From a virus, in IMG/VR virus record IMGVR_UViG_3300045988_157868, positions 1 through 40,907 of that record: a stretch of 40,907 nucleotides of DNA; one strand, given 5' to 3'. The notes under the pieces were generated by a model. That model worked only from the letters and a program-made list of their open reading frames with translations, searched no databases and was not told the origin of the DNA. Positions 1,053-40,715 of this stretch are shown here, one piece after another. The position numbers were made by a program, and so were the translations under genes. The stretch's first letter is position 1; each line of letters begins with the position of its first letter.

Positions 1053-2525
1053 TTACTTGTTTCCTTCCTTGAGTAGGGTTTCGATCCGGTCGAGTCGCTC
1101 CGGGAGTGTGGCTACCGTGCGGGCGATTTCCGGGATGAGTTTGATTTTGTCGGCCACGAAGTCGACAAAGGTTTTGCCTTCGGTGGCTTTCCAGCCGGTG
1201 AAAAGTGGTTTGTTGTCCTGCCATTCGGGACCAACTAGTTGGTCTAGGATCCAGCGCACCATGCGTGGTTCTCCTTCTTCTTGTTGTGGTTGGTTCGGTG
1301 AGTCGAGCAGTTCGGCGGCGTAGGCCAGCACGACGTCAAACGGGAAGCCGGGGCCAGGGTCGGTGTGGTCAACTTCCCGCCAGGCCTCGGAAATTTCCGC
1401 ATGGCCATGAACACCACGGACACCTGCGCGGAGTTGATCGGCGTCGATGAACTCCAGGGGGATGTCGTAGAGCTGTGACCAGCTGGCGATTTGTTCGGCG
1501 GTCCGCCGCAGCTTTTGGTCGTCGTCAAGCCAGTCTTCGCGGCTCATGCTGGCGTAGCCGGTCAAACTGATGTGCAGGCAGCGGGCGTTGCCGGTGGGGC
1601 CTGCTGCGTACGGCATGAAATCATCCGTGTTGCACAAAATGAGGTTGCCGTCTGCTCCGGCGAGCACGTTATAGCTGGAGCCGTTGGCGGGGTTTGTTTG
1701 CCACTGGGCGACGGCAATGCCGTCTCGCCCTGGCGGGCACTCCACCGTGTGGACACAGATCGACTGAATAGCATCGAGGGAGCGGTAGCCGACACCGGGC
1801 ATGTCCGCAGTGAAATCGGCATCGTAGCGGATTTTTGTTTCCATGGTTCCTCCTTCTTCTTGGGTTAGGGTTTCAGGTGCAGGAATGGGGGCGCGTGATG
1901 CGGTGCCATTTGGGTGTTGGCCCCAGTAGTCAGCAAGCACAAAATTGATATCACAGTCGATACCGCCCACGTTCTCGCTGCCGGGGCGCTGATAGAGCAC
2001 CGCTTCCGTAGATAGGACGCCTCCGCTCCAGGCCGCAGTCTGCCACGCCAGGAACTTTCCGCCGCCCAAGTCAGCGATGAGCGCATCTGCGGCAGCCCAA
2101 GCGATCACCCTGGAATGCCCATAAATACCGACCCGGGCGCGCCCTAAGACTTCACAACAGGCGCGGAAATACTCGGAAGCGGTACCGTTCCACTCATCAA
2201 GGCTGATAGGGAAATCCACCGCGAAGAACACGGGGTGATCGTTACACCCGAGCTCGTCGAGTTTCCGCTGGGCCGCCTGGGCATCAGCCAAGCCACCAGA
2301 GTAGCCACGCATCACGTCAGAGTCGGATTCCTTGCCAAACTGCCATACGAAAGCGACCTCCAGGCCATGAGCTTGGAGGTCATCTAGTTCAGCCTTCTGG
2401 ATGGGCTTTCCCCGCATCCAGCTAGCCCTGGGTGGGCTGATGTAGCGGATCACGCCATCATGGCCAGCGGCGCGAATCGCCACAGCTGGCGGCACGCCAG
2501 CACTGTAATCAAGGACTGTTAACAA
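1053..2525 (-). CDS. Endolysin: N-terminal Rv2525c/DUF1906-like glycosidase-like domain plus N-acetylmuramoyl-L-alanine amidase domain plus C-terminal domain
   Basis: 490 aa. N-terminal pattern VLDYSAG...VIRYIS...GLEVAFVWQ...VFFAVDFP...VGIYGH. Central amidase_2-like pattern ICVHTVECP...HGHAEIS...DHTDPGPGFP. Lies next to the holin. Confidence 0.85.
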   Translation of the reverse strand: MLTVLDYSAGVPPAVAIRAAGHDGVIRYISPPRASWMRGKPIQKAELDDLQAHGLEVAFVWQFGKESDSDVMRGYSGGLADAQAAQRKLDELGCNDHPVFFAVDFPISLDEWNGTASEYFRACCEVLGRARVGIYGHSRVIAWAAADALIADLGGGKFLAWQTAAWSGGVLSTEAVLYQRPGSENVGGIDCDINFVLADYWGQHPNGTASRAPIPAPETLTQEEGGTMETKIRYDADFTADMPGVGYRSLDAIQSICVHTVECPPGRDGIAVAQWQTNPANGSSYNVLAGADGNLILCNTDDFMPYAAGPTGNARCLHISLTGYASMSREDWLDDDQKLRRTAEQIASWSQLYDIPLEFIDADQLRAGVRGVHGHAEISEAWREVDHTDPGPGFPFDVVLAYAAELLDSPNQPQQEEGEPRMVRWILDQLVGPEWQDNKPLFTGWKATEGKTFVDFVADKIKLIPEIARTVATLPERLDRIETLLKEGNK

Positions 2526-2534
2526 TGTTTCTCC

Positions 2535-3323
2535 TTATTGGAAAGTCATAGGCAGCATGGGGTGAGCACCGTGCAAGCCCAGTGTGCGACGGATGAAATC
2601 AATCCCCCGGGGGCGGACACGAGTCGTGTGCGTTACCACCTGGGTGCCGTTCGAACGGGTATAGCCGCCGGCCTTCACCTCGAAATAGTTTGCATAGCGT
2701 TGGTATGGGGTGTTCCGCATGTCACCTTTAGTAATCAAGATGCCCCGGTTCCGCAGCTCACGGAAAAGTGTGTTCTGGCCGATCCCTAGCATTTTCGCCA
2801 CCGTGCCCATGCTGTAGGAGCCGGTGGAATCAATAAAACAGTCGTAGGCATCCGCCTTCGGCTGGAGCTGCTTATTAGCAGCCTCTAGGGCCAGGCGTTC
2901 CTCTTCAGCGTTGAGCGCAATTAAAAGAATCTCAGATCGGGTCAACTGCGATGGATCAAACGCCGGCGCCACCATGCGTGCGCGCTTTTCCACCTCGATG
3001 AAATAGCGGCGGGCTTGCCTACCCCTAGCGGAGCGCTGGATCATGGCAATCTCCTTTGCCATGTCCAAAGACACAACATGATTCAACCGCGGCCGAGACG
3101 GCATTCCCGCAGGTGACGCCGAACGGTCATTTTTGACCACATAGTCCACACCCTCCTCAAAACCATAAGCAACCATCCGCGGAAACCAGTGGCGATACGA
3201 CGCCCCGGCTTCCAAAAACTCGTGAAGGTCACGCCCTAACACCGCCTGAACGCCCTCCCCCATGTTCGTAATAGGGATGAGCTGGCCGCCGCTTGGTGTA
3301 TGATTATTATCTGGTTTCGACAT
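2535..3323 (-). CDS. Antirepressor (AntA-like N-terminal domain plus KilAC C-terminal domain)
   Basis: 262 aa. LHEFLEAGASYRHWFPRMVAYGFEEGVDYVV and MAKEIAMIQRSARGRQARRYFIEVEKR (AntA/Bro-like). YSMGTVAKMLGIGQNTLFRELRNRGIL (KilAC-like). SD GAAAGGAG upstream. Confidence 0.8.
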   Translation of the reverse strand: MSKPDNNHTPSGGQLIPITNMGEGVQAVLGRDLHEFLEAGASYRHWFPRMVAYGFEEGVDYVVKNDRSASPAGMPSRPRLNHVVSLDMAKEIAMIQRSARGRQARRYFIEVEKRARMVAPAFDPSQLTRSEILLIALNAEEERLALEAANKQLQPKADAYDCFIDSTGSYSMGTVAKMLGIGQNTLFRELRNRGILITKGDMRNTPYQRYANYFEVKAGGYTRSNGTQVVTHTTRVRPRGIDFIRRTLGLHGAHPMLPMTFQ

Positions 3324-11500: not shown

Positions 11501-13501
11501 CTGCACGCTATTTACGAACTCGTTGACCATGGATAGCACTTGACCGAGTGGACCCAGAGAAGACTGGCCGGCGGTGGCGGCGGCCTGGAACACACCGCTG
11601 ATGATGCCGCCCACGTCGGATAGGGTTTGGCCGATACCTTTCAGGGTGTTGATGCCGTTTTGCACCCACTGGTCGAACTGGCCAGTCTGGGTTGCCTGGG
11701 TAAGGAATTCACCCAGGCGGGCACCTGCCTCACCCAGGTATTGGCCTAACTGGGGCAAATATGCGGAGCTTGCTGCGCCGATATCCACAATGGCCTGGGT
11801 GAGAGGCCCAGCCGCTTGGTTTGTGCCGGCAAACGCTTGCCGGGTGTTTTCCAGCATGGTAGCCAGTCCAGTTTGGGAAGCCTCACTGGATAGTGCTGCA
11901 ATGTTTGCGCGCAGCCCAGTGTTGATTTCGCTAGCGATCCCCGCCAGGCCGGTCTTCAGCACGGGGAGCTGCACGGTCGCCAGGTTCGTGACGTCCTCAG
12001 CCAAGCCGTCGAACAGATTGTCCTGCACCGCGAATTTCAGGTCCTGCCACTGGTCGCCCAAGGCCTGCATGGCCAGCACGAACTCTTGTGCTTTCGGGGA
12101 CAGGTTCGCTAGAGCTTCGGCAAAGGGATCGACGCCACCAGCGGCAGAAGACGCCCCCTTCGCCAGGTTTTCCAGGGCGTCATCGAGGCGTTCCTGGGCG
12201 ACCAGCACATTTTCGTTTGCCTCTAGCAGGGCGCGCTGCGCGTCGGCTTCCCCACGGGTGGCGGCCTCGACTTTTTCCTTCGCATCCTGAACCTTCTGCG
12301 AGCCCTCGATACCGGCGTCGTTCGCTGCCTGCACGTCCTTGGCTAGCTGGTTGTTTTTCTCCCGCACTTCATCGAGGTTTTTGACCGCTTTGCGGTATGC
12401 CAGGTCAGCTTCGGCGATATCCAGGCCGGAAGAATCCTTATCGGCCTGGGCGTCAATCAGGGATTGGCGGGCGCGGGCGACCGCCAGGACGGCTTCTTCT
12501 TCCCCTAGGGCCGCGTCTTCCAGTTCACCCTTGAGCTCTTTCAGGTCTTTGACGGCTTCTTTACGGGCGTCGTTGAGGGCGTCTTGGGCTTTCCGGGTGT
12601 TCTTCTGCGCGTCGGCTACCCGCCGTTCGGCGTCTTCTACCCGACGGTTGGCCTGCACTAGGCCGCGTTCGGCAGACTCCACCTGCCGCTGCAGCTGCTT
12701 CATTTTGTCCGCGGTGTCGTCGGCTGCGCCGCCGGCGGATTTCCCCATGGCAGAAAACGCTGCACCCACACCGCTGAGTCCAATCCCTAGGGTGGCCAGG
12801 CCGGCCGCGGCGGATGCGGCTATGCCAGGGAGCACACCCAGCACACCGATCACGCCGGAGGCTGCGGCTGCTACAGACGCCAGGGGGCCAATACAGCCGG
12901 CCGCGGCAACAGCAATGATACCGATGCCGGTTGCTTGGGCCCCCACCATGCCCAATGATGATGCGGCACCAGCAGCCTGCGTGGCCATGGACGCCAGGCC
13001 GGACGCGGCGCTACCCGTATCCACGTCGATTTTGGCTTTACGGTCACGGGCAGCAGCAGCGATTTTTGCTTTCGCAGCCGCGGTATCAGCATCAACCTCA
13101 ACCGTGACGTGGCGGTTCTTAGCAGCCTGGTCAATGCGCTCCTTAGCAGGGGCAGTATCAGCATCAACCTCGATAGTGACCTTTTGCGGGCGGGTGAGAT
13201 ATTCGATACCTGACTTAGCGTCTGTGGTATCTGCCTCGGCCTGGATCGTGAGCGTCTGATCCCGGCCCAGCTGGGCGATCTTCCCCTTGGCCGCAGCAGC
13301 ATCCACATCCACATCAATCTCAGCGGTAGGGAGGTTCGCCATCTCGGCGCGCAGCTGCGCCCGGAAATCACTCAAATCCGGGCGAATCTCCACACCAAAT
13401 TGGGCATTAATCCGCTCCAGCTCCGCTTTCAGGCGCTTGGAGAACCCCGAAAGATTCGGTCTGATCTCAACCTTCGCAACCCCTGCGGTGTATTCAGCCA
13501 T
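8543..13501 (-). CDS. Tape measure protein with embedded NlpC/P60-like and lytic-transglycosylase-like motifs
   Basis: 1652 aa from ATG 13501 (MAEYTAGV; G-run SD upstream). The track start 13570 would overlap the chaperone ORF. Ala/Gly-rich and hydrophobic repeats. GKPYVWGGVHWGDCSGAMSAIARY (about 10005-10080). IQSESGGDPN...GLLQIIPATY (about 8975-9095). Confidence 0.9.
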   Translation of the reverse strand: MAEYTAGVAKVEIRPNLSGFSKRLKAELERINAQFGVEIRPDLSDFRAQLRAEMANLPTAEIDVDVDAAAAKGKIAQLGRDQTLTIQAEADTTDAKSGIEYLTRPQKVTIEVDADTAPAKERIDQAAKNRHVTVEVDADTAAAKAKIAAAARDRKAKIDVDTGSAASGLASMATQAAGAASSLGMVGAQATGIGIIAVAAAGCIGPLASVAAAASGVIGVLGVLPGIAASAAAGLATLGIGLSGVGAAFSAMGKSAGGAADDTADKMKQLQRQVESAERGLVQANRRVEDAERRVADAQKNTRKAQDALNDARKEAVKDLKELKGELEDAALGEEEAVLAVARARQSLIDAQADKDSSGLDIAEADLAYRKAVKNLDEVREKNNQLAKDVQAANDAGIEGSQKVQDAKEKVEAATRGEADAQRALLEANENVLVAQERLDDALENLAKGASSAAGGVDPFAEALANLSPKAQEFVLAMQALGDQWQDLKFAVQDNLFDGLAEDVTNLATVQLPVLKTGLAGIASEINTGLRANIAALSSEASQTGLATMLENTRQAFAGTNQAAGPLTQAIVDIGAASSAYLPQLGQYLGEAGARLGEFLTQATQTGQFDQWVQNGINTLKGIGQTLSDVGGIISGVFQAAATAGQSSLGPLGQVLSMVNEFVNSVQGQQALGSFFSSMTDGLAALMPILSTALTSIGTTIMPAISDFIQQAAPGVQMFVQGFADGLSALAPAMGPIGQLLSDIGAALAPLLPVLGELLTAALVPVAQGLSQVVGALAPVIQIAATALTPLIQQLAPIFSDLVGMLADLVTQYLGQLMPFLPQMVAAWQQIFDAVAPLIPVFTKLAFDIISPLIGVIGALMPAIVGLVQVFATIITAVAPVIAIIGELIGAVVKVLAAIINFVVQAVTNWDSFKARLIAATSQFITKIVSSFQQFISRAVSLIVDFGKRLVNQFMTMWNNASAAVANGVKAVVEKVKGIRQLVLDVFKGAKDWLINAGKTIISGLWNGMKDMWENVTEWFSDKLSAIRSPFSSRASRHATGSVRRYAAGGEDHSPQIAAGGEWRVWAEPETGGEAYIPLANDYRRSRAVAITAAVADHFGYSLVDAKGKGFAPVAKGSLGPTDVRAFAEGGITIDDLDSFASDLEGKPYVWGGVHWGDCSGAMSAIARYTAGVDPWAGRFTTASEKEGLSALGFLPGLGPSGSLQIGWYNGGPGGGHTSGTLPSGTNVEMGGGRGNGQFGGSAAPASHPQYTDHAHVPAEFFAPIKVPRMGGLGDIDFGHTDAASASAVETTDPSGDKLKSFRASGKSDPDSYVTGAKSDGPSSISEIVADFAKTAAAGHTKDLLGLVGVSDDIPMVKAYSQWLKARQSVSKRSGTAAKQKEITSLSQAAASVIDADPQVDTVEVTGLDLVGGLSPIKAPKADDGDIDHVYVPGGGAEQWRGMAMAAMRRVGFNADDPAQVNAMIKQIQSESGGDPNIAQQIVDVNGSGESAGVGLLQIIPATYAAHRDPELPNDRRNPFSNMVAALRYYRSRYGFDLTTMWGQGHGYAGGGLVEGPGGPTDDLIPAWLSNGEFVVREAATRHARPLLEMLNADPQHARAITQAATGTPPNPPADPPAPVEVHYHIETNNVEEGLRRSEMHARQQVMAMNGA

Positions 13502-18352: not shown

Positions 18353-19261
18353 CTAGCTACCCAGGCCGGTGATCTTAATGACCGCCAGCGGGTCTGTTAC
18401 CGCGTAGGCGAGCATGGCGCGGGTTTTCGTCCAAGTCAGGTCCCGATCTTCATCACGGTAGGTCGTGGTGGTAATGCCTTCTTCCACGCCCATCGTGCCT
18501 ACTTGTTGCTCGGCGATGAGCCAGCCTTCGCCCTTAGTGGCCAGCGGGCTGGAAATAACCTCTAGGCCCTTGTTCTGCAGGAACTTGGATTCTGCCTCAT
18601 CGTCGTCAAAGGCATTGGAGAATTCCAGGTGGTCATCGGGGTGGAGAGCTAGGAGATTGTACACGTAGCCCATTTGGGATTTTCGCCCCTCAGTGAAGGC
18701 CTTGTTAATGTCAGCCCGAATAGACTTGGCTGCGGTTTGATCCAGCTTCTTGGTTTTGTTAATGGTTGCCCAGCCACCGGACTCCACCTTGATGATATCC
18801 GCATCGTAAGCGGTGAGGGCTTCGCGGACAGCCTGCATACCCATGCCATCCAGATCATAAACCATAGTATTTGCGACCCGCTGGGCACGCCGCTGCATCA
18901 TAGTCAGGTCATTGCGCTTTGCAGCCTCATCAGTCACGGAGAACTTACCGCCGACCTTAACGGTCTTGATGACCTTGGGGTCATCAGTAGTGACATCAAC
19001 CGTGGGGTAGTTACCACCCGGGGCAATGACACCATTATGGTCGTCAGCCAGTAGGGCATTCTTCAGCGCTACCTCGTAGAGGATAGCGCCACCCTTAGCC
19101 TCACCAGTGGAGAAAATCCGGTCAGTGAACATACCAAGGGCAGTAATATCAGCGATATAGCGGGCGATACGTGTGGGCTCCTGGAGCATCATGTCCAGTG
19201 TGATAACCCCGTCGGCCACTGTCGGGGCGACGCCGGGGAAAAGGCCAGTGTTTTTAGGCAT
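18353..19261 (-). CDS. Major capsid protein
   Basis: 302 aa, following the scaffold and a small head protein. Size and position. Confidence 0.8.
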   Translation of the reverse strand: MPKNTGLFPGVAPTVADGVITLDMMLQEPTRIARYIADITALGMFTDRIFSTGEAKGGAILYEVALKNALLADDHNGVIAPGGNYPTVDVTTDDPKVIKTVKVGGKFSVTDEAAKRNDLTMMQRRAQRVANTMVYDLDGMGMQAVREALTAYDADIIKVESGGWATINKTKKLDQTAAKSIRADINKAFTEGRKSQMGYVYNLLALHPDDHLEFSNAFDDDEAESKFLQNKGLEVISSPLATKGEGWLIAEQQVGTMGVEEGITTTTYRDEDRDLTWTKTRAMLAYAVTDPLAVIKITGLGS

Positions 19262-19276
19262 GAGAAATTCCTTGTC

Positions 19277-19645
19277 TTAGAGTAGGGCAATAGTGGCGGG
19301 TTTACCTGATGTGCCCTTGGTGAGCGCGATAGCGACTACAGGGCCAGCAGCAGCCTTGACGATCTTGCCGTCGGCTGCGGTGCTGAGCTTGTCGCCGGCA
19401 ACAAATGTGCCTGCGGCTAGGGCGTCGAGAACATGCCCGGCGCGGTAAACAGTGACATAGCCGTCCTTGTCTACATCATGAGCTACTACACCGAATGGGT
19501 AAGCGTCAGCGGCGGCAATATCAACGACCGGGGTTCGGCCAACAATGTCGTCGGCGGGAACAACGAATGTGCCGGCGGGGATTTTCTTCTTCGCTTTCAC
19601 TGTGATGGCGGCTGCTGGATCGTAGTGAACTTTAGTGATATCCAT
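19277..19645 (-). CDS. Small head protein (DUF2190-like / decoration-type position)
   Basis: 122 aa, beta-rich, between the scaffold and major capsid genes. Confidence 0.45.
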   Translation of the reverse strand: MDITKVHYDPAAAITVKAKKKIPAGTFVVPADDIVGRTPVVDIAAADAYPFGVVAHDVDKDGYVTVYRAGHVLDALAAGTFVAGDKLSTAADGKIVKAAAGPVVAIALTKGTSGKPATIALL

Positions 19646-19653: not shown

Positions 19654-20202
19654 TTACTGGTCGTGGTTTTTGCGGAGTGCTTTAGGCACCCATGAGCTGG
19701 GGTAGGTTACCGGGTCTTGCTGGGGTTCGTTACCTACCCCGGACCCGGATTGGATGTTTTGGCGGGGGCTATTCGACGGCGGGGCGGTATTTCCTGCACC
19801 GTAGAGTTCTTTAATCCTGGTAGCGCGGGCTTCTAGGTCTTCTTTCGTGCCAGTGCCCAGCAGCGGCACGTCCTCAGGTTTGATGCCGTGGGCCGCTGCG
19901 ACTTCCAGCAGCAGGTTCGCGGTTTGGGCTTGGGCGAGTTCCTGCTGGGCTGCGGCTAGTTTCTCTTGGGCTAGCTGGAGCTCTGATTTCTGTGAGTCCT
20001 CATGCTGCTGCCATTTCTGGGCGGCGGCTTGAACCGCGTCACGTTCTTGCCGGGTTTTTTCCAGCTCCGCTAGGGCTTCTTCTAGAGTCATCTCCGGGGC
20101 TGGGGACTGCGATGGGGAGGATTCTTCCTGGGGGTTCTGCACAGCAGGGTTCGTGGTTTCTTCCTGTTTTTCGTCTTGGGTATCGGCGATATTATTCGGC
20201 AT
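19654..20202 (-). CDS. Capsid scaffolding protein
   Basis: 182 aa. Acidic, Gln/Glu/Ala-rich coiled coil (LEEALAELEKTRQERDAVQAAAQKWQQ). Upstream of the capsid gene. Confidence 0.7.
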   Translation of the reverse strand: MPNNIADTQDEKQEETTNPAVQNPQEESSPSQSPAPEMTLEEALAELEKTRQERDAVQAAAQKWQQHEDSQKSELQLAQEKLAAAQQELAQAQTANLLLEVAAAHGIKPEDVPLLGTGTKEDLEARATRIKELYGAGNTAPPSNSPRQNIQSGSGVGNEPQQDPVTYPSSWVPKALRKNHDQ

Positions 20203-20240
20203 GATTGCCTCCTTGATTGCGTGAAATGTAAATAGATAAA

Positions 20241-20258
20241 CCCCACTGCTCAGTGGGG
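20241..20258 (-). terminator. Rho-independent terminator (second of a tandem pair) upstream of the scaffold gene
   Basis: On the minus strand, CCCCACTG/CAGTGGGG hairpin followed by TTTATCTATTTACATTT. Confidence 0.55.
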
Positions 20259-20306
20259 TCGGATTTCAAATCGTGGCCTTCAACCCAGATAATGGTTTCG
20301 GGCACG

Positions 20307-20344
20307 AGAAAACCCGCCCCTCAAATGTGAGACCGCGGGTTTCG
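20307..20344 (-). terminator. Hairpin/terminator just after the candidate immunity gene; sequence-related to the 3357-3399 hairpin
   Basis: On the minus strand, cgAAACCCGCggtctcacatttgagggGCGGGTTTtctc. The first 22 nt match 20 of 22 with ggaaacccgcggcctcacattt at 3357-3378. Confidence 0.55.
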
Positions 20345-20362: not shown

Positions 20363-20659
20363 TTACGCTGCTGCGTAGTTAACAGGAGTCATGGTTTCCA
20401 CAATCTTTCCCCACTCATCAGTTTGGAAGTGTAAGTGAACTACCTCTCCGGTGCTTTTGCGGATTAACGTCAAAGGCGTGCCTTCAGGATTCAGGAAGTG
20501 TTCATCCCCATCAAATGCCTCTACCGCAGCGATAGGGGTGAAAAAATACTCGGAGTTTTCCATACCTTCAGCGCTTGCATGTGGTGTGCCCTTTTTCACT
20601 ATCTTATTTGCTTCTTCACGAAAGATACTGTATGCAGCCTGTTTACCGATCAACGTCAA
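20363..20659 (-). CDS. Small protein, candidate immunity partner of the MuF C-terminal toxin-like domain
   Basis: About 98 aa, starting 19 nt after the MuF stop. GGGAGGTG SD. TTG start (first or third codon). AT-richer than flanking genes. Followed by two terminators. Confidence 0.45.
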   Translation of the reverse strand: MTLIGKQAAYSIFREEANKIVKKGTPHASAEGMENSEYFFTPIAAVEAFDGDEHFLNPEGTPLTLIRKSTGEVVHLHFQTDEWGKIVETMTPVNYAAA

Positions 20660-20678
20660 ACACCTCCCAATAGATTAG

Positions 20679-22412
20679 CTATATTCTACCAAATGGTTGG
20701 ATGACATCTGGCAATCGCCAATCCACCGGGGTAGCGTCATCCAGTCTTACTAGAATAATAGGTGCTGACGCCTCAACGCCATATTGCGGTCCTTCTGGAT
20801 TAATTTTCTTGCCCAATTGCGCATCAATGAATGCGACTTCATCATCAATCTTTTGCCAGAGAATCACATGTCGCTGTTTAGCATTAGCGATTTGGAATGA
20901 AAATATCCCGTACCCATCGGGCATTTCTCCAAGAATATCTTTCCATTCTTTAGCAGTGGTTTCGATTATTTTTATGGGCTCTCCGTCTGGGGTTTCCCAC
21001 ATCTTTAGGGCTTCAAGAATCTGGTAGCCAGAAGCACCTGCGGAATACAAGGTGGCGTATGGGTAAATATCATAGCCGCGCATCCGCATCACGGTAGCCG
21101 CGGTAGCACGCACACAGTTAGCAAAGGAATTTACACGAGATACCTGCACTGCTGCCTGCTCCATGGTTTCAGGAGCATCCAGCCGCGGGTATTCGTCCAA
21201 ATCATATGGGTAAAGCGTTGATAACCGTAGTTCGGGGAATCCGTCTTTCGCTGGCAGCGTGAATGTTCCGTCACTATTTGGCTGTTCGAAAGCGCTACCA
21301 GCCAATCCCATGCCGCCGTCTTCTGACACGCTACCGGAATCCTCCACTGGTCGGGGAGCCTGGCTATGTTCTTCCCTGCCGGAGTGGGAGTCGGTCGCTA
21401 TCTTCTCTGGCTGTTGGCCAGGATCGTCAGCGCTATCCTTGAAGGTTGCGAATATTTCTGGATTTTCTTTCGCCAGTTGTCGGTAGCGGCTGCTGAACCG
21501 GTCTATTGGCATCTCTAGGTCATTGTCTAGTTCCTCTTTGGTGGGATGATCGCGGGCGTCATTCCAGAGCGTTTTAAGCGCTTTGTATTCGGCTTCACCC
21601 TCCCATGGCCTTCCCTTAATCACTAGCACTGCTTTGCAGTCGCAATGATCGTGGTACGCTTTACCTTCTTCAGAAGTTAGAACGGTGGATTCCTCATACA
21701 CGGGTCCGCGGGAAGCGAGCATGGCGCAGAACGCGCAGCTTTCCGCCCCGGTGAGAACCCTGGCCCATCCCAGCACTACCCCACCGCTCTTGGCCGGCCG
21801 GACATATTGGTCAACTGCTACCTTGCGGGGGTCGGAGAGCTCGTCACGCAGTCGCCTAGCATCTGATTCGTTATCAACCTTCACTACAACCTGTCGCTTA
21901 GCTGGTTTAGCCTCATTACGGTCGGCCGTATCAGCGATGGCATCCCTACCTGCGGCACGGGCATGCCGCGTTGCCCCTGCCGCTACCCGGCGCGCTACCT
22001 TGTCGACCAGGACGGGGTCGGTAGGGTCGGGCGGGAAGGGAATCATTTTGTCTGCAAGCTGCTGCTGGTAGGTGGCATCGTAGTCGGTGATACGGCCGGG
22101 GATAGGGTCCCGGGTGGGGTTCCATCCCAGGGCCCTGGCTAGCATTTTCCATGCGGCGTTAGGATAGTAGGGTTTTTGGGGCGCTGGGGTGATCTGGACG
22201 CCATGGGTGATAGCCACGGAATGAATGTGGGTGATAGCCAACTTATATGATTGGGTGCGCGCTTCCTGGATCAGGGGGATTAGCTCGGTTACAAGCTCCC
22301 ACATTCCGTCGAGGCTGGTGGGCACGCCCCGGTTTTTGATGAGGTTGTAGATCGCCTCAGCCAGCCGGTCGATGATATTCCGGTCGTTTTGGTGATATGA
22401 GTACAGGTTCAT
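20679..22412 (-). CDS. MuF-like minor head protein fused to a C-terminal papain-fold toxin-like domain
   Basis: 577 aa. MuF-region motif GAESCAFCAMLASRGPVYEES...YHDHCDCKAVLV. Gly/Ser/acidic linker. The C-terminal ~200 aa carry NSFANCVRATAATVMRMRGYD (Cys codon 21114-21116), KQRHVILWQKIDDEVAFIDAQLGKK (His codon 20878-20880) and a following Asp. Confidence 0.75.
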   Translation of the reverse strand: MNLYSYHQNDRNIIDRLAEAIYNLIKNRGVPTSLDGMWELVTELIPLIQEARTQSYKLAITHIHSVAITHGVQITPAPQKPYYPNAAWKMLARALGWNPTRDPIPGRITDYDATYQQQLADKMIPFPPDPTDPVLVDKVARRVAAGATRHARAAGRDAIADTADRNEAKPAKRQVVVKVDNESDARRLRDELSDPRKVAVDQYVRPAKSGGVVLGWARVLTGAESCAFCAMLASRGPVYEESTVLTSEEGKAYHDHCDCKAVLVIKGRPWEGEAEYKALKTLWNDARDHPTKEELDNDLEMPIDRFSSRYRQLAKENPEIFATFKDSADDPGQQPEKIATDSHSGREEHSQAPRPVEDSGSVSEDGGMGLAGSAFEQPNSDGTFTLPAKDGFPELRLSTLYPYDLDEYPRLDAPETMEQAAVQVSRVNSFANCVRATAATVMRMRGYDIYPYATLYSAGASGYQILEALKMWETPDGEPIKIIETTAKEWKDILGEMPDGYGIFSFQIANAKQRHVILWQKIDDEVAFIDAQLGKKINPEGPQYGVEASAPIILVRLDDATPVDWRLPDVIQPFGRI

Positions 22413-22434: not shown

Positions 22435-23859
22435 TTAGCGCGTTATCGTGTCGCCTAGTGGTGATTCCGCCGTAGCATCAAAAGCATCAAAACCTGGGGC
22501 TTTTGCCATCGTTTGCTTGATGCGTTTGATTTTTTCAGCAGTGAACCCTGGGATGTCTTCCCAAAGGATTTCTGGCGGGATGTTTAACATGGTGGCCAGT
22601 TTCCCTAGGGCATCTACTGTTTGGGCGAAGCTTCGGGCTGTCATGTCAGCCCATTTGACTTCGGACGCAAAGTCGGCGGCTTCCTGTTGGTCGCCATCAA
22701 GGTGGGCGCAGAGCCGTAGTAGCTGCTCGTAGGATTCGCCTAGGGAGGTTCGGATCTCTGAGGATTTCCTGTCCTTAGCGGATTCCATAGCCGCCAAACC
22801 GTCTGCGGAAACATTGCTGATAGCGTTAGCGCCGAGTGACTGGGCTGGCACCTGGGCGATAGCCGCCATATCGCGGATAGATGCCTGCTTCACATCCACA
22901 TACTGGCGAATATCCGTTTCATCAAACTGGCCGACTTTCGCGTCGGCGTCGATGAGCCACACGTCACTGGCGCGCATGCGGATGCCCTCAGCGTCATCAG
23001 CTGGAGCCCAGCCGATGACGTAGCGCTGCTTGAAGGCGCTGTAGTATTGGGCGACCGCGGCCTCCCAGCTCGTGCGGTCAATGCGGCTTTGCAGCGCAAT
23101 CAACGGTTCGATGATGCCGGCGACTTCTTCGCCTTCCAGAAGCCACCGGTCGCGGAACCTCACGACTGGGGGCACACCCGCGTGGTGGTCGCGGGCTTCG
23201 ATGAGCTGGAGATTCTGGGCTGTGTTCCATGGGTGAGCCGCCCAATCCTTGATTTCCTGCGGGGTTTCGATAGCGCCGATGTAGTAGATTTTTTCCTCAT
23301 CGAATAGCCTCATACGGTTGCCCTTGACCTCTAGGGCCAGAATGGGCCATTCTGATGCCACACCGGACTCACCCGGCCAAGCATATGCCTCACCATAATA
23401 GGCGGTCATATGACGGGGGGACACGCCGGTAATCAGCGGAGCTGGCGCGCCGCCTACAACCCCCTGGTCAACCACGGCATACGAGGTGCCGTATTGCAGG
23501 GCGGCGCGGGTAATGCCGGTTTGCCTAGCATCGAGGTTGTTACGCTGCCAGTGTTTCCATGCCCTGGCGCGGGCACCAGCATCAACCCCGGAGAAATAAT
23601 CTTCCACTTTCATCGACTGCGCGAACGTATCCAGCACCAAAGGGAGGTACATGGTTTGCGAATCCCGAGCGAGCTGGATTTGCCGGTCGATCATGAGATT
23701 GGCGTTTTTATCCTTCAGGATGCCAAACCGGTTAATGATTTCCTGTCGATCCCACGGGCGCATCGCACTGTTGATTCGGTCAAACACTTGGCGTTCCCTG
23801 GCATACTGTGCCAATAAACCACGCGCAGCAGATAAAACCTGGCTATGGCTCATGCTCAT
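22435..23859 (-). CDS. Portal protein
   Basis: 474 aa from ATG 23859 (MSMSHSQ), in an ATGA overlap with the terminase stop. Size and position after TerL. Confidence 0.85.
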   Translation of the reverse strand: MSMSHSQVLSAARGLLAQYARERQVFDRINSAMRPWDRQEIINRFGILKDKNANLMIDRQIQLARDSQTMYLPLVLDTFAQSMKVEDYFSGVDAGARARAWKHWQRNNLDARQTGITRAALQYGTSYAVVDQGVVGGAPAPLITGVSPRHMTAYYGEAYAWPGESGVASEWPILALEVKGNRMRLFDEEKIYYIGAIETPQEIKDWAAHPWNTAQNLQLIEARDHHAGVPPVVRFRDRWLLEGEEVAGIIEPLIALQSRIDRTSWEAAVAQYYSAFKQRYVIGWAPADDAEGIRMRASDVWLIDADAKVGQFDETDIRQYVDVKQASIRDMAAIAQVPAQSLGANAISNVSADGLAAMESAKDRKSSEIRTSLGESYEQLLRLCAHLDGDQQEAADFASEVKWADMTARSFAQTVDALGKLATMLNIPPEILWEDIPGFTAEKIKRIKQTMAKAPGFDAFDATAESPLGDTITR

Positions 23860-25493
23860 AAAAACACCGCCCTTCCTGAATGCTTTGGCATGTGATGCGC
23901 CGCGTGCTCTAGATACAGCCTGCGCACCATGCGGGCCCCGATTAGGCATACCGCGGCATCAATCTTTTTCGCCGATGATGGGGACTCCTTTTTCACTGAT
24001 ATGCCATATCGGTTCTCTGCGCGCCGGCAGTTCCGCATATGGGCAGTAAGTACTGGGTGTCCATCGTGGGTAAAAGCATGCTCGATGATTTCTCTTTCTG
24101 TGAGCTCACACGCTTGGGTGAAATCGAAAAGTTTCCCGCGCATATCCCACGCAATCGGCTCCGGCTGCTTCCCACCAGGGTTCGCCCAGAGCTGCAGCCG
24201 GTCTTTATAGCGTGCCGGCCAAGTGACCTTCGTGAAGCTTTCCCACTCGCGGACGTCTGCGAAAAAGGCTTTCACATCATACCTGGCGAAGGCGTTATCC
24301 ACACGCGCGTCTACCGCCTCCACATCCACTGTGCCGGCGTCGTTATGGCTGTTGCCGGGGTCCCATGACCCAATCAGAAAAACGTGGCCATCGCTAACCC
24401 GACACCCTACCAGGGCTGTGGTATCGCGGGACAGTGAGCCGTCGAAGAACATGACAATTTCCTCCCCTTCTGCCACGATGGTTTCCCGGCGAGCCATGAG
24501 CGCAATATCGTTCGGGTCTACCCAGGCGTTCGCGGCCGCGGTAGGCCAGTTCAGGTATTTACGCTTGGAATCATCCGGGGAAGCCTCTGGTGACCAAACC
24601 CGAGTGATGATGGTATCAACATCCATCCATGGGCAATCTTGATACACAAACTCCAGCCCAGCGCGAAGCGAAATGGCGTCAGCCAGATTAGTGTCTGGTG
24701 GTGCTTGGCGGATATCCATGAGGATTTGCCGGTCGTTCTTCGCCTTCCCGTTTTCCTGGAGACACCAAGCCTGGAAGGTGCTCTCGCCGACCGTGCCCAG
24801 GCCTGGTTCCCAAGCGTTCAGGGTCCCTAGCATTCGGCTTCCTGACTTGGCCAAATTGTCCGCCAGGGTGCTGTATAGCTTGGTGCCACCATTGCCTGGC
24901 GTCCAGTGTTCGAGCTCATCACCGACGATGAACGTGGCTTCGGCGCCTTCTTGGGTCATAGCTGACGAAGTAATGACCTCCAGCTTTCCTTCCGGCACGA
25001 TATTGATTTGGGTTTTACCGGGGTCAATATCATAATCACGATGCAATCTAGGTGCGGCTTTCTTATTCGCCATCGCACGCACATGACGCATCGTATTATC
25101 AGTTTGCTTCTCGGACACTGCGGCTATCTGCACCCATGGCATGGCTACCGGCTTACCGATACAAGCGCCTGGCACCTGGGGGTCAAACCGATCAAGCCGA
25201 ACCGGAGCCAGCAACTCCGTCAGGGCCAGGGCGGCGGCAAACGGGCTCTTACCACTCCCCTTAGCCAGCCGGCGGAAAGAGTTATAGAACAGCCACTTGC
25301 CATTCTCATCAATCGCGTAAAACCACAGGATGAACCTGGCCTGGCGTTCGGTGTAAACCCACGGCAACCCGGCGCGAATCCCGTTCGGGTGCTTCAAATA
25401 TTTCGCGGCCCACGCTAGTGCCTCCCAGCCGAGTGTTAAATCAGGAACCCCCGGGGGGAGCGTGTCTAGCCGCTCCTCCGGGGGAATCATCAT
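23856..25493 (-). CDS. terL: Terminase large subunit
   Basis: 545 aa. Walker-A-like RRLAKGSGKSPFAAALAL. ATPase then nuclease architecture. Overlaps the TerS stop. Confidence 0.9.
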   Translation of the reverse strand: MMIPPEERLDTLPPGVPDLTLGWEALAWAAKYLKHPNGIRAGLPWVYTERQARFILWFYAIDENGKWLFYNSFRRLAKGSGKSPFAAALALTELLAPVRLDRFDPQVPGACIGKPVAMPWVQIAAVSEKQTDNTMRHVRAMANKKAAPRLHRDYDIDPGKTQINIVPEGKLEVITSSAMTQEGAEATFIVGDELEHWTPGNGGTKLYSTLADNLAKSGSRMLGTLNAWEPGLGTVGESTFQAWCLQENGKAKNDRQILMDIRQAPPDTNLADAISLRAGLEFVYQDCPWMDVDTIITRVWSPEASPDDSKRKYLNWPTAAANAWVDPNDIALMARRETIVAEGEEIVMFFDGSLSRDTTALVGCRVSDGHVFLIGSWDPGNSHNDAGTVDVEAVDARVDNAFARYDVKAFFADVREWESFTKVTWPARYKDRLQLWANPGGKQPEPIAWDMRGKLFDFTQACELTEREIIEHAFTHDGHPVLTAHMRNCRRAENRYGISVKKESPSSAKKIDAAVCLIGARMVRRLYLEHAAHHMPKHSGRAVFL

Positions 25494-25945: not shown

Positions 25946-26530
25946 TTACCGCTCGGGGACACGCCCCTCCCGCTGCAACGCAGCAGCTACTCGCACCGCG
26001 GGGGCCAGATCAACAAGGCCACCCATACGGTAAATGTCCTCCGTTGTGCGGATGAACCTTGCCCGGGAATAAATCTCTACGCAGCCGCGCCGACGCCCCG
26101 GCCCTTCTGGGAGCAGCCCGAAAACATGCAGGCCTCGCCTAGATACCGACCGCTCTACAACGGCACCGGGCACCGCCTGGATAATCTCAACCGCCCAATC
26201 GGCCACCTTGCCGCGCCGGTTGATGCAGTGGTCAAGGTCGATGCAGGCTAGGCCACCGCCCAGCATGACGCCGTGCGGACCATCCTGAACCTCAGCATGA
26301 GTGGTCCAGGTTTCCGGCTTAGTAGTTGACGCAGGGGAGCCTGTAGGCGTGACGGGGCGTTTACCATCGGCCGCCGTCCACCGATCTAGCTCACGCATCC
26401 GGGCCGGCAGCTGCTCACGCCGACGCCGACGGTAGGCCTTCTGCCTGCATGCGGACGAGCAAAACCGCGGGGAGCGTCCCCGTGTAGGGATCTCCAGCCG
26501 GGCTTTGCACGCCTCACACACCAATCTCAT
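25946..26530 (-). CDS. Small AEP (primase-polymerase)-like protein with N-terminal zinc ribbon
   Basis: 194 aa. CEACKARL...RFCSSACRQKAYRRRRR (zinc ribbon). GVMLGGGLACIDLDHC and RRGLHVFG resemble the prim-pol N-terminal catalytic motifs. Confidence 0.45.
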   Translation of the reverse strand: MRLVCEACKARLEIPTRGRSPRFCSSACRQKAYRRRRREQLPARMRELDRWTAADGKRPVTPTGSPASTTKPETWTTHAEVQDGPHGVMLGGGLACIDLDHCINRRGKVADWAVEIIQAVPGAVVERSVSRRGLHVFGLLPEGPGRRRGCVEIYSRARFIRTTEDIYRMGGLVDLAPAVRVAAALQREGRVPER

Positions 26531-26824: not shown

Positions 26825-27178
26825 TCATTTCAGGCCGGGGTGGCGGGTAGCAAACCTGTCATACAGCCGGCGCCGGGCTACCCGACGCTGAACACCGCGC
26901 ACCGATTCGCGCCGGGACTTTTTCGCATGGCATAACGGGCATAACCACTGGAGGTTATCGAGCGCGTCGGTGCCGCCCTCAGCGACCGGGACGACGTGGT
27001 CCAACTCTAGACTGTCTCGCCCTATCACTGGTTCGGCACCACACTGGGCGCACCAGTAAGAAAGACGCTGTTTCGCTAATCGGTGTAGGCGTTTCCACTC
27101 AGCCGCGGTTGTGCGCGATACGCCATTACGCCACGCCATCAGCAGCACCGCCTTGCGGCGGGCGGACGATAGCAGCAA
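26825..27178 (-). CDS. HNH endonuclease (packaging-associated type)
   Basis: 117 aa. CAQCGAEP...LELDHVVPVAEGGTDALDNLQWLCPLCHAKK. Near the terminase genes. The start may be the internal MAWRNGV at 27139. Confidence 0.85.
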   Translation of the reverse strand: MLLSSARRKAVLLMAWRNGVSRTTAAEWKRLHRLAKQRLSYWCAQCGAEPVIGRDSLELDHVVPVAEGGTDALDNLQWLCPLCHAKKSRRESVRGVQRRVARRRLYDRFATRHPGLK

Positions 27179-27380
27179 TCGCCCATGACAGTGCTTGCTC
27201 TAGGTGCGTGATAGCTAGCTCACGCTCACGACAGTCCGGTGCGATCGCCGCCACACGATGCGCCGCCGCCTGCATACTAGCGCGAACCTTAATGCAGTCT
27301 TCGCACTGGTCGTCGGTGCCTTCGTGATACCGGAAGCGACGATCAATCTCCTGCTGGATACTCTTCGCTTGTGATCCCAT
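27126..27380 (-). CDS. Conserved-looking small phage protein of unknown function
   Basis: 84 aa from ATG 27380 (MGSQAKS), preceded by GGAGGAGG. Motif FRYHEG...RERELAITHLEQALSWAIAAI. Confidence 0.5.
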   Translation of the reverse strand: MGSQAKSIQQEIDRRFRYHEGTDDQCEDCIKVRASMQAAAHRVAAIAPDCRERELAITHLEQALSWAIAAIVRPPQGGAADGVA

Positions 27381-27450
27381 GATCCCCTCCTCCCCAACCC
27401 TAGGCATGACTAAACCCCTAGGTGTTTACCCAGGGGTTCCGAACGCCAGT

Positions 27451-37311: not shown

Positions 37312-37498
37312 CCGTAACCGAATCTTTACCTAAAACCTATATGCGGATAACAGTTTAACGGGTAACCTTTTTCTTAAAGGAAGCTCATAAAAACATGAGG
37401 AGACAATCATGCCCAGCATCTATGATGCCCGATCCACCAGGGAATGGTGCGATCAGGAAACCGTAGGTGAGTCCTTTTATCGAACAGCGCTTAACGAT
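37312..37498 (+). repeat. Copy B of the ~190-bp diverged direct repeat
   Basis: See copy A. The minus-strand shadow ORFs 36747-37028 and 37385-37765 share the tail LTYGFLIAPF..GSGII..GH...LMFL, which reflects the repeat. Confidence 0.8.
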
Positions 37499-38608
37499 AT
37501 CAGAAAACTTGTTCCACTGAATGAGCATAAAGTTCGCCGATTTGACGCAACGCTCGTGTTGGAAATGGACAATCCACATTCCGAAGCTGGTCATGCAATA
37601 TCTGTCAGGTGGCAAGACCGGGTTATTGCTTATATACCCGATTTGGAGACTGATGATTATTTTCCCGAACTGGCACGCCTTGCCGCTAGCGGGTTCGATG
37701 CCGGAGTGAGGGGTACTTTGTGGACGAATGAGACACAGCCCAATTTCAATCCCAACGAGGTTCACATGTCAGTGCATGTTGGGCCGCAACCACCCGGCAT
37801 GATCGTGCCTATTAACAATCCGCCTTCACGAAAATGGGCAGTCATCCCCCGGGGACAAGCTAGCCAGGTCACTAAGGAAAAAGACCACCTCGATGTGCTG
37901 CAACCATATACGGGGCTAGGCCATAAGAAAACCTACATTCTTGTAACGCTGCACAAGGTGCTTCTTGGTACGCGCACCCGCTGGGCCGGGGTCGAGGTTC
38001 GACTAGACGGCAAGCGAATCGGAGAGTTAAGTAAGGCGACTGGGGCAAAATTCCTCCCCATCATTGAGCACTACGATTCTCTCGGGCTTGTTACCGTATG
38101 CCATGCCTATCTCAGGGAAACTGCCACCTCTGCTGAAGTTGCCCTCAAAGCTGCGACCTTTGAAGAGATAACAGATGCAGATCTATATAATCCCGTTGTA
38201 TGCCCGATTCCGCAGCTGGTGCCTTATGCTTTTGACCCTTACACCTATAATGTTCCCGGACGGTACCGGCCGGAACTCGAAGATGACGCATATAGTGATT
38301 GGGAATATGAAGAGCCCCATTACTTCAATCCGCCGCGACTGGGATACTACAATGCAGAGCTAGTAGGTCCCAACAATTCCGTGGGTAGGGCACCATTGCG
38401 GGGATATTTGCAAACCAGTATAGGCCTAAGCGGTAACAAGAGCTACGCTATCTACCTTCTTTGTCTTTTCTTTGGTGGCTACATCGGGTTGCACCACTAC
38501 TATGTAGGGAAAATCGGCAAAGGGGTTCTATATACATGCACAATGGGGTTGTTCATGATCGGCTGGATCGCAGATATTCTTAACCCCCGGCGCGGTTTTT
38601 ATAGCTAG
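37409..38608 (+). CDS. Membrane-anchored protein: HIRAN-like domain(s) plus C-terminal TM2 domain
   Basis: 399 aa. VGESFYRTAL...ATLVLEMDNPHSEAGHAISVRWQDRVIAYIPD (HIRAN-like). A second similar block, ILVTLHKVLL...VEVRLDGKRIGELS. C-terminal YAIYLLCLFFGGYIGLHHYYVGKIGKGVLYTCTMGLFMIGWIADIL (TM2-like). Confidence 0.65.
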   Translation: MPSIYDARSTREWCDQETVGESFYRTALNDIRKLVPLNEHKVRRFDATLVLEMDNPHSEAGHAISVRWQDRVIAYIPDLETDDYFPELARLAASGFDAGVRGTLWTNETQPNFNPNEVHMSVHVGPQPPGMIVPINNPPSRKWAVIPRGQASQVTKEKDHLDVLQPYTGLGHKKTYILVTLHKVLLGTRTRWAGVEVRLDGKRIGELSKATGAKFLPIIEHYDSLGLVTVCHAYLRETATSAEVALKAATFEEITDADLYNPVVCPIPQLVPYAFDPYTYNVPGRYRPELEDDAYSDWEYEEPHYFNPPRLGYYNAELVGPNNSVGRAPLRGYLQTSIGLSGNKSYAIYLLCLFFGGYIGLHHYYVGKIGKGVLYTCTMGLFMIGWIADILNPRRGFYS

Positions 38609-39557: not shown

Positions 39558-40715
39558 TTATGAACCCATGAGCGAGTCACTCACCCGCTGCAATGCCTCC
39601 TGGCGCCTGGCATTGGAGGTGCGCATATAGATCTCAGTGATGGTCTTTAGGTCTACCTGGCCTAGTAGCTCGCCAATCGCGGGGATTGTCATGCCCTGCT
39701 CCACCAGTGTGGTGATAAGCCACACACGACCATAGTGCGGGCTGATACGCTCGGTGATCCCGGCGCGGGTTTTAGCACGGTGGAGGACGGACCTGTAGGA
39801 GGTGTCTAGGATGATTTTGCCGGAGCCGGTGGTGCAGATGAAGGCGTCTGGGCTGTCGCCGATGGTGGCCAGGTGGTCGATGATGTCTTGGTGGAATTTT
39901 TTAAAGACGGGGATGGTGCGGTGGCTGGCGCTGGTTTTGGGGGTGTCCTGGTATTTCATGCCGTCTGAGGTGCGGTAGGCGTTTCCCCTGATATGGATGA
40001 GGATGGTGTCACCTGTAATGGTGATGTCTTTACGCCTGAGGCCTAGCACCTCTCCTATGCGCATGCCATGGAAGAACGTGAGGATACCTATTATCTTATG
40101 GGTCGGGTTTAAATTGTCCACAATTTTCTGCATGGTGGCGGCTTCGGGCAGTTCCTTGCGTGCTGGCTTGGGCTTGTGGCGGGCCTCTTTCACGTCCACT
40201 GGATTAGTAGGGATCAGATCCCGGTCTACCGCTGCCTGTATCGCAGTGCGAAGGCGCACATATGCCGCACGGTTATAGGGCTGGTATCCGAATTGTATGG
40301 TGAGCGCGTCCCACCAGTCGATTACATCACGGCGGGTAAGTCTTACCAGGGGGATGGTGCGGAGCCGACCGGCTTTGCCTGTGATAGTGAGAATACGGCG
40401 GTCGAGGGTGGTGCGGTAATTCACCATAGTGGAGGGCTTTAGGCGTTTTTCTTGGAGGTCTAGCCACTGGCGTAGCCAATCGCCGACGGTTCGGGCATCG
40501 TCTTCTTTCGTCCGGTACCGGAGGTGCGGGGGTTGCCATTCGTCGAATTCAATGAGTTTTTGTTCTTGACGCAGCCAGGCACCAGCATCGTCTTTGGTGA
40601 AGAATGGGTGGGGGCCGGAGTATTTTTTGCCATCAGGTCCGGTGTAGCGGGCGCGGTATTTGCCGGATGATAGCCGTGATATTGTGCCGAAGAGGCGTTT
40701 TTTAGGGGCGGGCAT
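39558..40715 (-). CDS. int: Tyrosine integrase
   Basis: 385 aa. HGMRIGEVLGLRRKDI (catalytic Arg region), SPHYGRVWLITTLVEQG (H..R), LKTITEIYMR (Tyr). Adjacent to the terminal repeat. Confidence 0.9.
   Translation of the reverse strand: MPAPKKRLFGTISRLSSGKYRARYTGPDGKKYSGPHPFFTKDDAGAWLRQEQKLIEFDEWQPPHLRYRTKEDDARTVGDWLRQWLDLQEKRLKPSTMVNYRTTLDRRILTITGKAGRLRTIPLVRLTRRDVIDWWDALTIQFGYQPYNRAAYVRLRTAIQAAVDRDLIPTNPVDVKEARHKPKPARKELPEAATMQKIVDNLNPTHKIIGILTFFHGMRIGEVLGLRRKDITITGDTILIHIRGNAYRTSDGMKYQDTPKTSASHRTIPVFKKFHQDIIDHLATIGDSPDAFICTTGSGKIILDTSYRSVLHRAKTRAGITERISPHYGRVWLITTLVEQGMTIPAIGELLGQVDLKTITEIYMRTSNARRQEALQRVSDSLMGS

Follow-up and report, generated by a model that had tools for sequence, protein, structure and literature searches.

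What is an enzyme of the papain fold, with a small gene directly behind it, doing at the end of a phage minor head protein? The question is raised by IMG/VR virus record IMGVR_UViG_3300045988_157868, positions 1 to 40,907 of which were analysed (40,907 nucleotides (nt), hereafter the window); by its gene content it is an apparently complete temperate siphophage of ~41 kb. On the minus strand, between the portal and scaffold genes, lies an open reading frame (ORF) of 577 amino acids (aa) with a MuF-class body and a Tox-PL1-like C-terminus, followed by a gene of 96 aa. An earlier note, made from the sequence alone, had read the pair as a virion-borne toxin and its immunity partner. The analysis reported here makes it probable that the locus represents a polymorphic-toxin cassette of the MuF family, carried by a temperate siphophage of Corynebacterium, on the strength of its architecture and family relation, the conservation of its catalytic residues, its predicted fold, a co-varying partner gene, cassette exchange between phages and a terminator. 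The parts of the locus are as follows:

20679..22412, minus strand: MuF/VG15-class minor head protein with a C-terminal Tox-PL1-like domain, 577 aa (stop codon 20679-20681), taken from the ORF list and lying between portal and scaffold genes
21423..22412, minus strand: MuF/VG15 body, residues 1-330, the conserved part of the protein
21264..21422, minus strand: low-complexity acidic Gly/Ser/Pro linker, residues 331-383 (~55 aa), read from the sequence
20682..21263, minus strand: papain-fold Tox-PL1/Gln_amidase-like domain, residues 384-577, predicted from profile, hhalign, AlphaFold2 and Foldseek results
21114-21116, 20868-20870 and 20823-20825, minus strand: predicted catalytic codons for Cys433, His515 and Asp530
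20661..20668, minus strand: Shine-Dalgarno sequence GGGAGGTG of the small gene, 7 nt before TTG 20653
20363..20653, minus strand: small gene for the 96-aa immunity-like partner, running from TTG 20653 to the stop codon at 20363-20365
20363..21150, minus strand: AT-rich hypervariable island of toxin core plus small gene, delimited by G+C and divergence
20307..20341, minus strand: hairpin 1, intrinsic-terminator-like with a UUUUCUC tail (-19.7 kcal/mol, z -2.4)
20239..20260, minus strand: hairpin 2, GACCCCACUGAGCAGUGGGGUU, upstream of the scaffold gene (-14.6 kcal/mol, z -3.6)

Profile, profile-profile and predicted-structure comparisons support assignment of the C-terminal domain as a divergent Tox-PL1/Gln_amidase papain-fold domain. 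Tox-PL1 (PF15644) is the only toxin family that the domain matches in Pfam, with 19.9 bits for the whole protein, 21.3 bits for the domain alone and coverage of profile positions 2-113 of 114; its three close homologues give the same kind of match. As the Pfam gathering threshold for this family is 24.1 bits, the domain is classed, on its profile scores, as a divergent relative of PF15644 that is sub-threshold for Pfam membership. The family that the earlier note had expected a profile search to return was thus found, at a score too low to stand by itself, and the relationship is carried by more sensitive comparisons. A word-indexed protein search with the domain retrieved four close relatives only and an exhaustive profile search was needed: a family profile built from four sequences found 73 proteins (exhaustive HMMER search, expect value (E) up to 1e-3). 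Among the 62 remote homologues that were aligned, 56 match PF15644 themselves (best E 1.6e-22) and 23 have MuF-type N-termini (15 VG15, 6 Phage_min_cap2 and 2 Phage_Mu_F). The ordered Cys-His-Asp arrangement that had been noticed in the sequence, residing in the motifs FANC(433)VRAT, RH(515)VILW and FID(530)AQ, is conserved throughout this alignment: N432, C433, G446 and H515 are invariant, and D530, Q532, R443, R556 and D558 are at least 90% conserved. Aligned as a family against the corresponding domains of eight other phages, the domain gives an hhalign match of 98.3% (E 1.2e-14, 156 columns), and in a Pfam scan of three of the eight each scored above the cut-off (Jawnski 32.8, GardenState 46 and Jeeves 40.9 bits). 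The toxin domain was not found in a scan of one genome per species.

The predicted structure points the same way. An AlphaFold2 model of the domain has a predicted local distance difference test score (pLDDT) of 89.8 and a predicted template modelling score of 0.87, and its Foldseek neighbours in the PDB include OspI, AvrPphB, a Josephin-type clippase, the Ssp1 amidase and the Cpe1 toxin. The interpretable top matches are papain-like enzymes, all of them weak (E from 2.5e-3 upward, template modelling (TM) score 0.3-0.6), so the domain has no close solved structure. Of the PDB sequences, OspI matches the family profile best (E 0.007) and aligns with it at the NC, H and D-x-Q positions, and it is because this glutamine deamidase is the best solved relative that the Pfam name Gln_amidase applies. 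Profile-profile, transitive and structural evidence together bear out the resemblance to Tox-PL1 that had first been suggested by eye. Enzyme activity is predicted, and cleavage and deamidation are not distinguishable from sequence.

The remainder of the 577-aa protein consists of a MuF-class body and a linker. Residues 214-284 match the VG15 family (PF25310, E 4.7e-19), and the cysteine motif from which a MuF-type body had been recognised, CAFCAMLASRG...YHDHCDC, lies inside that match. The protein also matches phrog_193 (E 1.3e-37), over residues 39-312 and thus over the MuF body only; PF04233 itself is not matched in Pfam. It is this body that presumably targets the protein to the capsid. 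The Gly/Ser/acidic linker described earlier is present at residues ~331-383, is rich in Ser, Gly, Asp, Glu and Pro, and runs into a domain model whose first nine residues have a pLDDT below 50.

The small gene required one correction. The mechanical ORF call begins at TTG 20659, 19 nt past the stop of the large gene, and gives 98 aa; because its homologues are all 96-97 aa long, and because the Shine-Dalgarno sequence then stands at a spacing of 7 nt, the gene is better taken as 96 aa from TTG 20653, starting 25 nt past the large-gene stop. Of the ~98-aa downstream ORF with a strong Shine-Dalgarno sequence that had been reported, the ORF, its 19-nt gap and its ribosome-binding signal hold; the length and start codon do not. 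The protein gives no match in Pfam (E up to 1), NCBIfam or PHROGs (E up to 0.1). Its AlphaFold2 model is confident (pLDDT 93.2); a Foldseek search of the PDB produced no match (best E 0.3, TM at most 0.32), and in BFVD the model matches small proteins of Arthrobacter and Microbacterium phages (TM 0.67-0.76, E down to 3e-5), GardenState gp5 among them at TM 0.67-0.71, the match at E 3e-5 being an Arthrobacter phage protein. A single-sequence hhalign comparison with GardenState gp5 failed (3%); family-to-family comparison succeeded, with the small-protein family of the window aligning to eight actinophage proteins of phrog_3585 at 95.9% (E 5e-9, 70 columns) and sharing with them the motifs GT-x-H/Y-V, E-N/D and K-x-T-G-E. 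All eight of those actinophage gene-5 proteins match phrog_3585 directly (E down to 1.6e-37) and the window protein does not. By profile comparison, then, the 96-aa protein is a remote relative of PHROG 3585, whose annotation is "immunity protein". Imm35, which Zhang et al. 2012 (PMC3482391) linked to Tox-PL1 as its specific immunity family, is matched in Pfam neither by the small protein nor by the related phage proteins. Elsewhere in the window there is no second copy of the cassette and no orphan immunity gene.

The two genes are also found together elsewhere. A tblastn search with the toxin domain returned 30 phage records (27 from Arthrobacter phages, one from GardenState and two of Mycobacterium phage Jeeves), and in all eight records inspected, from Arthrobacter, Microbacterium and Mycobacterium phages, a phrog_3585 gene of 90-102 aa directly follows the gene with the PF15644 domain. 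RefSeq names gp5 of Jawnski, Sonny and Martha 'immunity protein'. In these three Arthrobacter cluster AO phages and in Microbacterium phage GardenState the order is that of the window, namely portal, MuF plus PF15644, the 90-102-aa gene and scaffold, and both the enzyme domains (hhalign 98.3%) and the small proteins (95.9%) are homologous to those described here. They differ in several respects: identity is 25-29% for the enzyme and ~24% for the partner, their domains exceed the Pfam cut-off and their partners match phrog_3585 directly, their enzyme gene is annotated as a capsid maturation protease, and these are lytic phages, those of cluster AO being myoviruses. Since the cluster AO carriers are lytic (PMC5513430), MuF-toxin-like cassettes, as recognised by homology, are not confined to temperate phages. 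Gene 4 of Jawnski (L074), L075, L076 and GardenState (L073), and of 22 further records, bears the name 'capsid maturation protease', with or without 'MuF-like fusion'; the sole recognisable enzyme domain in those gene-4 products is Tox-PL1/PF15644, and the phrog_3585 gene comes next. In Jeeves (L080, 1070-2421), gp2 is annotated 'VIP2-like toxin', matches PF15644 at 40.9 bits and has a phrog_3585 gene, gp3, directly behind it; the pair sits at the left genome end, outside any MuF or head gene, as a free-standing version of enzyme and partner. Because it does so, the two can be said to travel as a unit.

A different substitution is seen closer to home. Corynebacterium phage Poushou and its kin are the closest isolated phages to the window, at ~65% nucleotide identity across the head module, with a capsid protein of equal length that is 67% identical and a scaffold that is 41% identical. 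Poushou gp5 has a MuF body 47% identical to that of the window over residues 1-332, where the similarity ends, and gp5 and gp6 likewise form a MuF-toxin gene and a small gene between portal and scaffold. In place of the papain-fold domain, however, gp5 carries an EndoU-type nuclease after residue ~332, and its small gene of 90 aa is an unrelated one. The window small protein and Poushou gp6 proved unrelated in direct comparison, as is to be expected of non-cognate partners.

At finer scale, the toxin core and the small gene stand apart from everything around them: no stretch of the window is richer in AT, and in comparison with relatives of 93-97% identity no other segment has diverged strongly. 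Positions 20363-21150 have a G+C content of 46.1% against 56.9% for the window, at the 0.2 percentile of all 788-nt segments, and third-position G+C is 44-46% in the cassette against 63-65% in neighbouring genes; the counts behind the earlier remark that the toxin domain and small ORF are AT-richer (25 of 60 at 20881-20940 and 41 of 60 at 12721-12780) are exact. Nucleotide identity to the metagenomic relatives L006-L012 is mostly 87-99% on both flanks and falls to 69-87% only at ~20400-21150. At the protein level the MuF body is 94-95% identical between the window and L006-L012 and 98-100% among L006-L012, with toxin cores at 62-91%; comparisons within L006-L012 set MuF bodies of 98-99% identity beside toxin cores of 72-78% and partner proteins of 78%. 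Over all pairs, toxin identity and partner identity are correlated at r = 0.98. Synonymous divergence (dS) lies at 0.73-2.7 in the cassette, 3-10 times the 0.10-0.20 of the MuF body, and the ratio of non-synonymous to synonymous divergence (dN/dS) is at most 0.27, from which it follows that both genes are functional and that the alleles are old ones swapped by recombination. These substitution rates show purifying selection on the toxin core and small gene alike, and comparison of the otherwise near-identical phages shows that the two are exchanged between them by recombination as one AT-rich unit. Local positive selection was considered as the cause of the hypervariability and rejected, dN/dS being at most 0.27 and dS strongly raised.

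More distant relatives extend the pattern. L015 has a 565-aa MuF fusion and a 97-aa gene, both ~54% identical to the window pair, and L002-L005 are prophage remnants beside host genes in which the MuF gene is broken and the toxin domain and 96-aa gene, ~57% identical, are intact. The partner gene therefore follows the toxin domain in three diverged Corynebacterium lineages (100%, 57% and 54% identity). Several further observations concern the debris of such cassettes. In L002-L005 (~5000-6730 in L002) the MuF gene is split into 154 and 301 aa and lies beside AntA/ANT, host RNase PH and Ham1. L013 and L014, Corynebacterium prophage remnants, have a 5'-truncated partner gene and no toxin, and L017 has an 83-aa fragment of the toxin tail with an intact partner beside a PAD_porph gene. 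An ENA contig of 1160 nt (P0004) contains a chimeric ORF of 137 aa, the C-terminus of which corresponds to the last ~95 residues of the toxin domain and the N-terminus of which resembles an alternative reading frame of the 5' end of the scaffold gene (compare the window ORF at 20088-20246); its origin is either misassembly or a deletion that took the partner gene.

These remnants also identify the host. Relatives of the window are integrated in Corynebacterium contigs, and the Ham1/RdgB host gene from a related prophage remnant has its best match, at 81% identity in the scan of one genome per species, in an uncultured Corynebacterium metagenome-assembled genome, which assigns the host to that genus.

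The cassette also appears to have an end of its own. The two hairpins reported after the small gene are both on the minus strand, at 20341-20307 and 20260-20239, and fold well. A hairpin with a T-run stands right after the small gene in all three Corynebacterium lineages (window, L015 and L002) with stems of different sequence; retention of the structure without the sequence indicates a functional terminator belonging to the cassette, and the comparison thus indicates hairpin 1 as the terminator that closes it. L006-L012 keep hairpin 2 with changes in its loop, but L015 and L002, which have a different gene downstream, lack it. This hairpin lies ~35 nt upstream of the Shine-Dalgarno sequence of the scaffold gene, and could be a second terminator, a stabiliser of an mRNA 5' end or a regulatory site for the scaffold and capsid transcript. 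A simple scan found no terminator-like hairpin after the partner gene in Poushou, GardenState or Jawnski.

How far, then, does the evidence favour a toxin and its immunity partner? Synteny across genera, co-variation of the two proteins (r = 0.98), replacement by EndoU in Poushou and anomalous composition uphold the toxin/partner cassette that the earlier note proposed. A number of observations nevertheless weigh on the other side. The direct PF15644 score is below the Pfam gathering cut-off, and the small protein lacks both a Pfam match, Imm35 included, and a PDB fold match. The minus strand showed no sigma-70-type promoter from which a lysogen would express the small gene, corynebacterial promoter types not being modelled, and co-expression with the late operon is therefore the simplest reading. 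The literature searched holds no experiment on toxicity, packaging, ejection or binding for any MuF and Tox-PL1 protein. Homologous pairs in lytic Arthrobacter cluster AO myoviruses fit poorly with a role in lysogeny only, and the occurrence of the same enzyme and partner in lytic phages weakens a purely lysogen-competition role. Finally, annotators of related phages label the domain a capsid maturation protease. Were they right, the papain-like domain would be a prohead protease tethered to MuF and the 96-aa protein an inhibitor or chaperone guarding against premature proteolysis, as the GenBank, RefSeq and PHROG labels of homologues ('capsid maturation protease (and MuF-like fusion protein)') imply; neither the window phage nor GardenState has any other head-module gene that can be recognised as a prohead protease, and conservation of the pair in lytic phages would suit such a function. 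Yet the homologous head genes of Poushou (capsid 67%, scaffold 41%, MuF body 47%) are accompanied by EndoU and no protease, so that the domain appears dispensable for assembly in this lineage; Jawnski has an additional, separate Mu-like protease/scaffold gene; and Jeeves has the PF15644 domain and partner outside any MuF or head gene. The cassette is moreover compositionally foreign, hypervariable and persistent in prophage remnants that lack head genes, and the 577-aa protein has no match in Pfam to the prohead protease families S78/HK97, U35 or Mu-like_Pro, the 'protease' label of phrog_193 covering the MuF body only. A maturation protease is, on balance, distinctly unlikely, and the label 'capsid maturation protease' on many actinobacteriophage genes probably mislabels a Tox-PL1 domain.

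Less probable still, and indeed very hard to credit, is that the domain has no host target and serves solely for self-processing, as a 'releasing' peptidase whose cut in the linker would free or trim the MuF protein. Papain-like peptidases are listed among the processing proteases of MuF systems and some Tox-PL1 versions are releasing peptidases (PMC3482391), and a long disordered linker does precede the domain; but the domain is the last in the protein, with no downstream cargo to release, and such an activity would call neither for a dedicated co-evolving partner nor for replacement by a nuclease in a sister phage. More probable, if on present evidence still unlikely, is an ejected effector of host takeover or anti-defence that does not inhibit growth, with the small protein as a safety catch for the producing cell and the alleles as the product of an arms race. 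Roles in host takeover or anti-defence have been proposed by Jamet et al. for MuF domains of low toxicity (PMC5576092), and OspI, the closest solved relative, acts by substrate-specific glutamine deamidation, which silences a host signalling protein and does not kill the cell. The pair occupies the same locus in lytic and temperate phages, in siphoviruses and myoviruses, and across four actinobacterial host genera; the lytic lifestyle of its cluster AO carriers in particular lends this explanation weight, and the window phage also has an Acb2/Tad1-like anti-defence gene. Set against it are the want of a known target, the dedicated co-varying inhibitor and cassette-like exchange that are hallmarks of toxin and immunity, and the relatives of the domain among secreted polymorphic toxins. 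A broader version may be offered tentatively, as a rather unlikely but consequential possibility: Tox-PL1 and a PHROG-3585-like partner might constitute an ancient two-part capsid module of actinobacteriophages, common to lytic and temperate phages, in which a capsid-delivered cysteine protease or deamidase would act on a host factor at DNA entry, an inhibitor would silence it during assembly, and cassette exchange would diversify both in an arms race with hosts or competing phages rather than in inter-bacterial competition by toxin and immunity. If true, this would contradict the published view of MuF toxins as specific to temperate phages.

The polymorphic-toxin cassette remains the preferred reading, and a mechanism can be sketched for it by analogy. 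Like MuF/SPP1 gp7 proteins, of which the capsid contains few copies that accompany the DNA into the cell, the fusion protein would be installed at the portal in small number and ejected together with the DNA. In the newly infected cell the predicted Cys433/His515/Asp530 enzyme would then cleave or deamidate a cytoplasmic host protein. The 96-aa protein would bind the enzyme, probably at its variable C-terminal lobe (residues 456-577), and keep the producing cell safe; it may also shield lysogens that meet the same allele. The locus has value as material for experiment: phages of human-associated bacteria commonly carry MuF polymorphic toxins, of which only the (p)ppApp-synthetase members have been experimentally tested. 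For the papain-fold class it offers a clean system of two natural alleles of enzyme and partner in near-identical Corynebacterium phages, with a sister phage that has a nuclease at the same position and homologous pairs in culturable lytic Arthrobacter and Microbacterium phages for comparison.

The wider setting of the cassette is a conventional head module, read on the minus strand as terminase, portal, MuF-PL1, 96-aa gene, scaffold, cement protein and major capsid protein; a small terminase, tail genes and a lysis cassette are also in the window, and an integrase marks the phage as temperate:

23856-25493, minus strand: large terminase, head module
22435-23949, minus strand: SPP1-type portal (PF05133, E 4e-26)
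between the small gene and the scaffold-like gene: spacer of 160 nt
19654-20202, minus strand: scaffold-like gene
19277-19645, minus strand: cement protein
18353-19261, minus strand: major capsid protein
39558-40715, minus strand: tyrosine integrase

Directly after the toxin cassette, where the window has its scaffold gene, the diverged relatives L015 and L002 have an AntA/ANT gene; in the window the AntA/ANT antirepressor is at 2535-3323 (minus strand), beside an endolysin with Rv2525c-like glycoside hydrolase and Amidase_2 domains (1053-2525, minus strand) and an r1t-type holin (717-1052, minus strand). A candidate anti-CBASS/anti-Thoeris nucleotide sponge is encoded by a 93-aa ORF at 27126-27407 (minus strand), whose product matches the Acb2/Tad1 hairpin domain (PF24729, E 1.4e-12, 48 bits where the cut-off is 27). 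Downstream of this ORF, which relatives L010-L012 also have, come an HNH gene (26825-27178), a PrimPol-like gene (25946-26530) and the small terminase. In the lysogeny region near the integrase, a 399-aa ORF on the plus strand (37409-38608), with a TM2 membrane domain at its C-terminus (PF05154, E 7e-11), may encode a membrane protein expressed in lysogens, for example one of superinfection exclusion.

Placed among described systems, the cassette has several features of the MuF toxin family, which was defined by Jamet et al. 2017 and has small downstream ORFs in 89% of cases (PMC5576092): an N-terminus of the MuF superfamily in a head module, a shared toxin domain at the C-terminus, a conserved N-terminus with a variable C-terminus, a downstream ORF of fewer than 150 aa and a temperate phage. 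The combination of toxin and partner, which the earlier note had called open, has precedents. Zhang et al. 2012 (PMC3482391) described fusions of MuF to Tox-PL1 in prophage head modules and proposed delivery by the capsid, and both PHROGs and RefSeq already give the partner family the name 'immunity protein'. The main text of the Jamet et al. survey lists no Tox-PL1 (PMC5576092). What was not found in the literature searched is a Corynebacterium example with two co-varying alleles, a remote link of the partner to phrog_3585 rather than Imm35, a conserved cassette terminator and homologous pairs in lytic phages. With the fusions of Zhang et al. the locus shares a MuF-class protein, a papain-fold NC/H/D domain (the 'NC, H, D' signature of Tox-PL1, a family that occurs in type II, III, VI and VII secretion system and MuF toxins; PMC3482391), its site in the head module, a small downstream ORF and a temperate phage; it differs in an actinobacteriophage body of VG15 type, a toxin subfamily below the Pfam cut-off and a Corynebacterium host.

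Comparison with characterised proteins places the two components more closely. Shigella OspI (PDB 3B21/4IP3) is among the top fold matches, and the NC, H and D-x-Q positions of the domain align with its Cys/His/Asp centre; at ~13% identity and a TM of ~0.36 it is, by contrast, a eukaryote-directed glutamine deamidase of a type III secretion system and has no immunity partner. Apk2 offers the experimental parallel for the MuF architecture, since the toxicity of this MuF C-terminal domain has been demonstrated and is countered by the immunity protein encoded downstream (IapK/Aph1; PMC12226406), although its enzyme is a (p)ppApp synthetase. Cpe1-Cpi1 (PMC12136450) offers that for the fold, as a papain-like antibacterial toxin that acts in the cytoplasm and is bound beside its active site by a small immunity protein; Cpe1 is, however, C39-like, is delivered by type VI secretion or contact-dependent inhibition, and is a weak fold match here (E 0.13-0.15). 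Taken together, these sequence-based comparisons give good support to regarding the cassette as a divergent addition to the known class of MuF polymorphic toxins rather than as a new kind of system.

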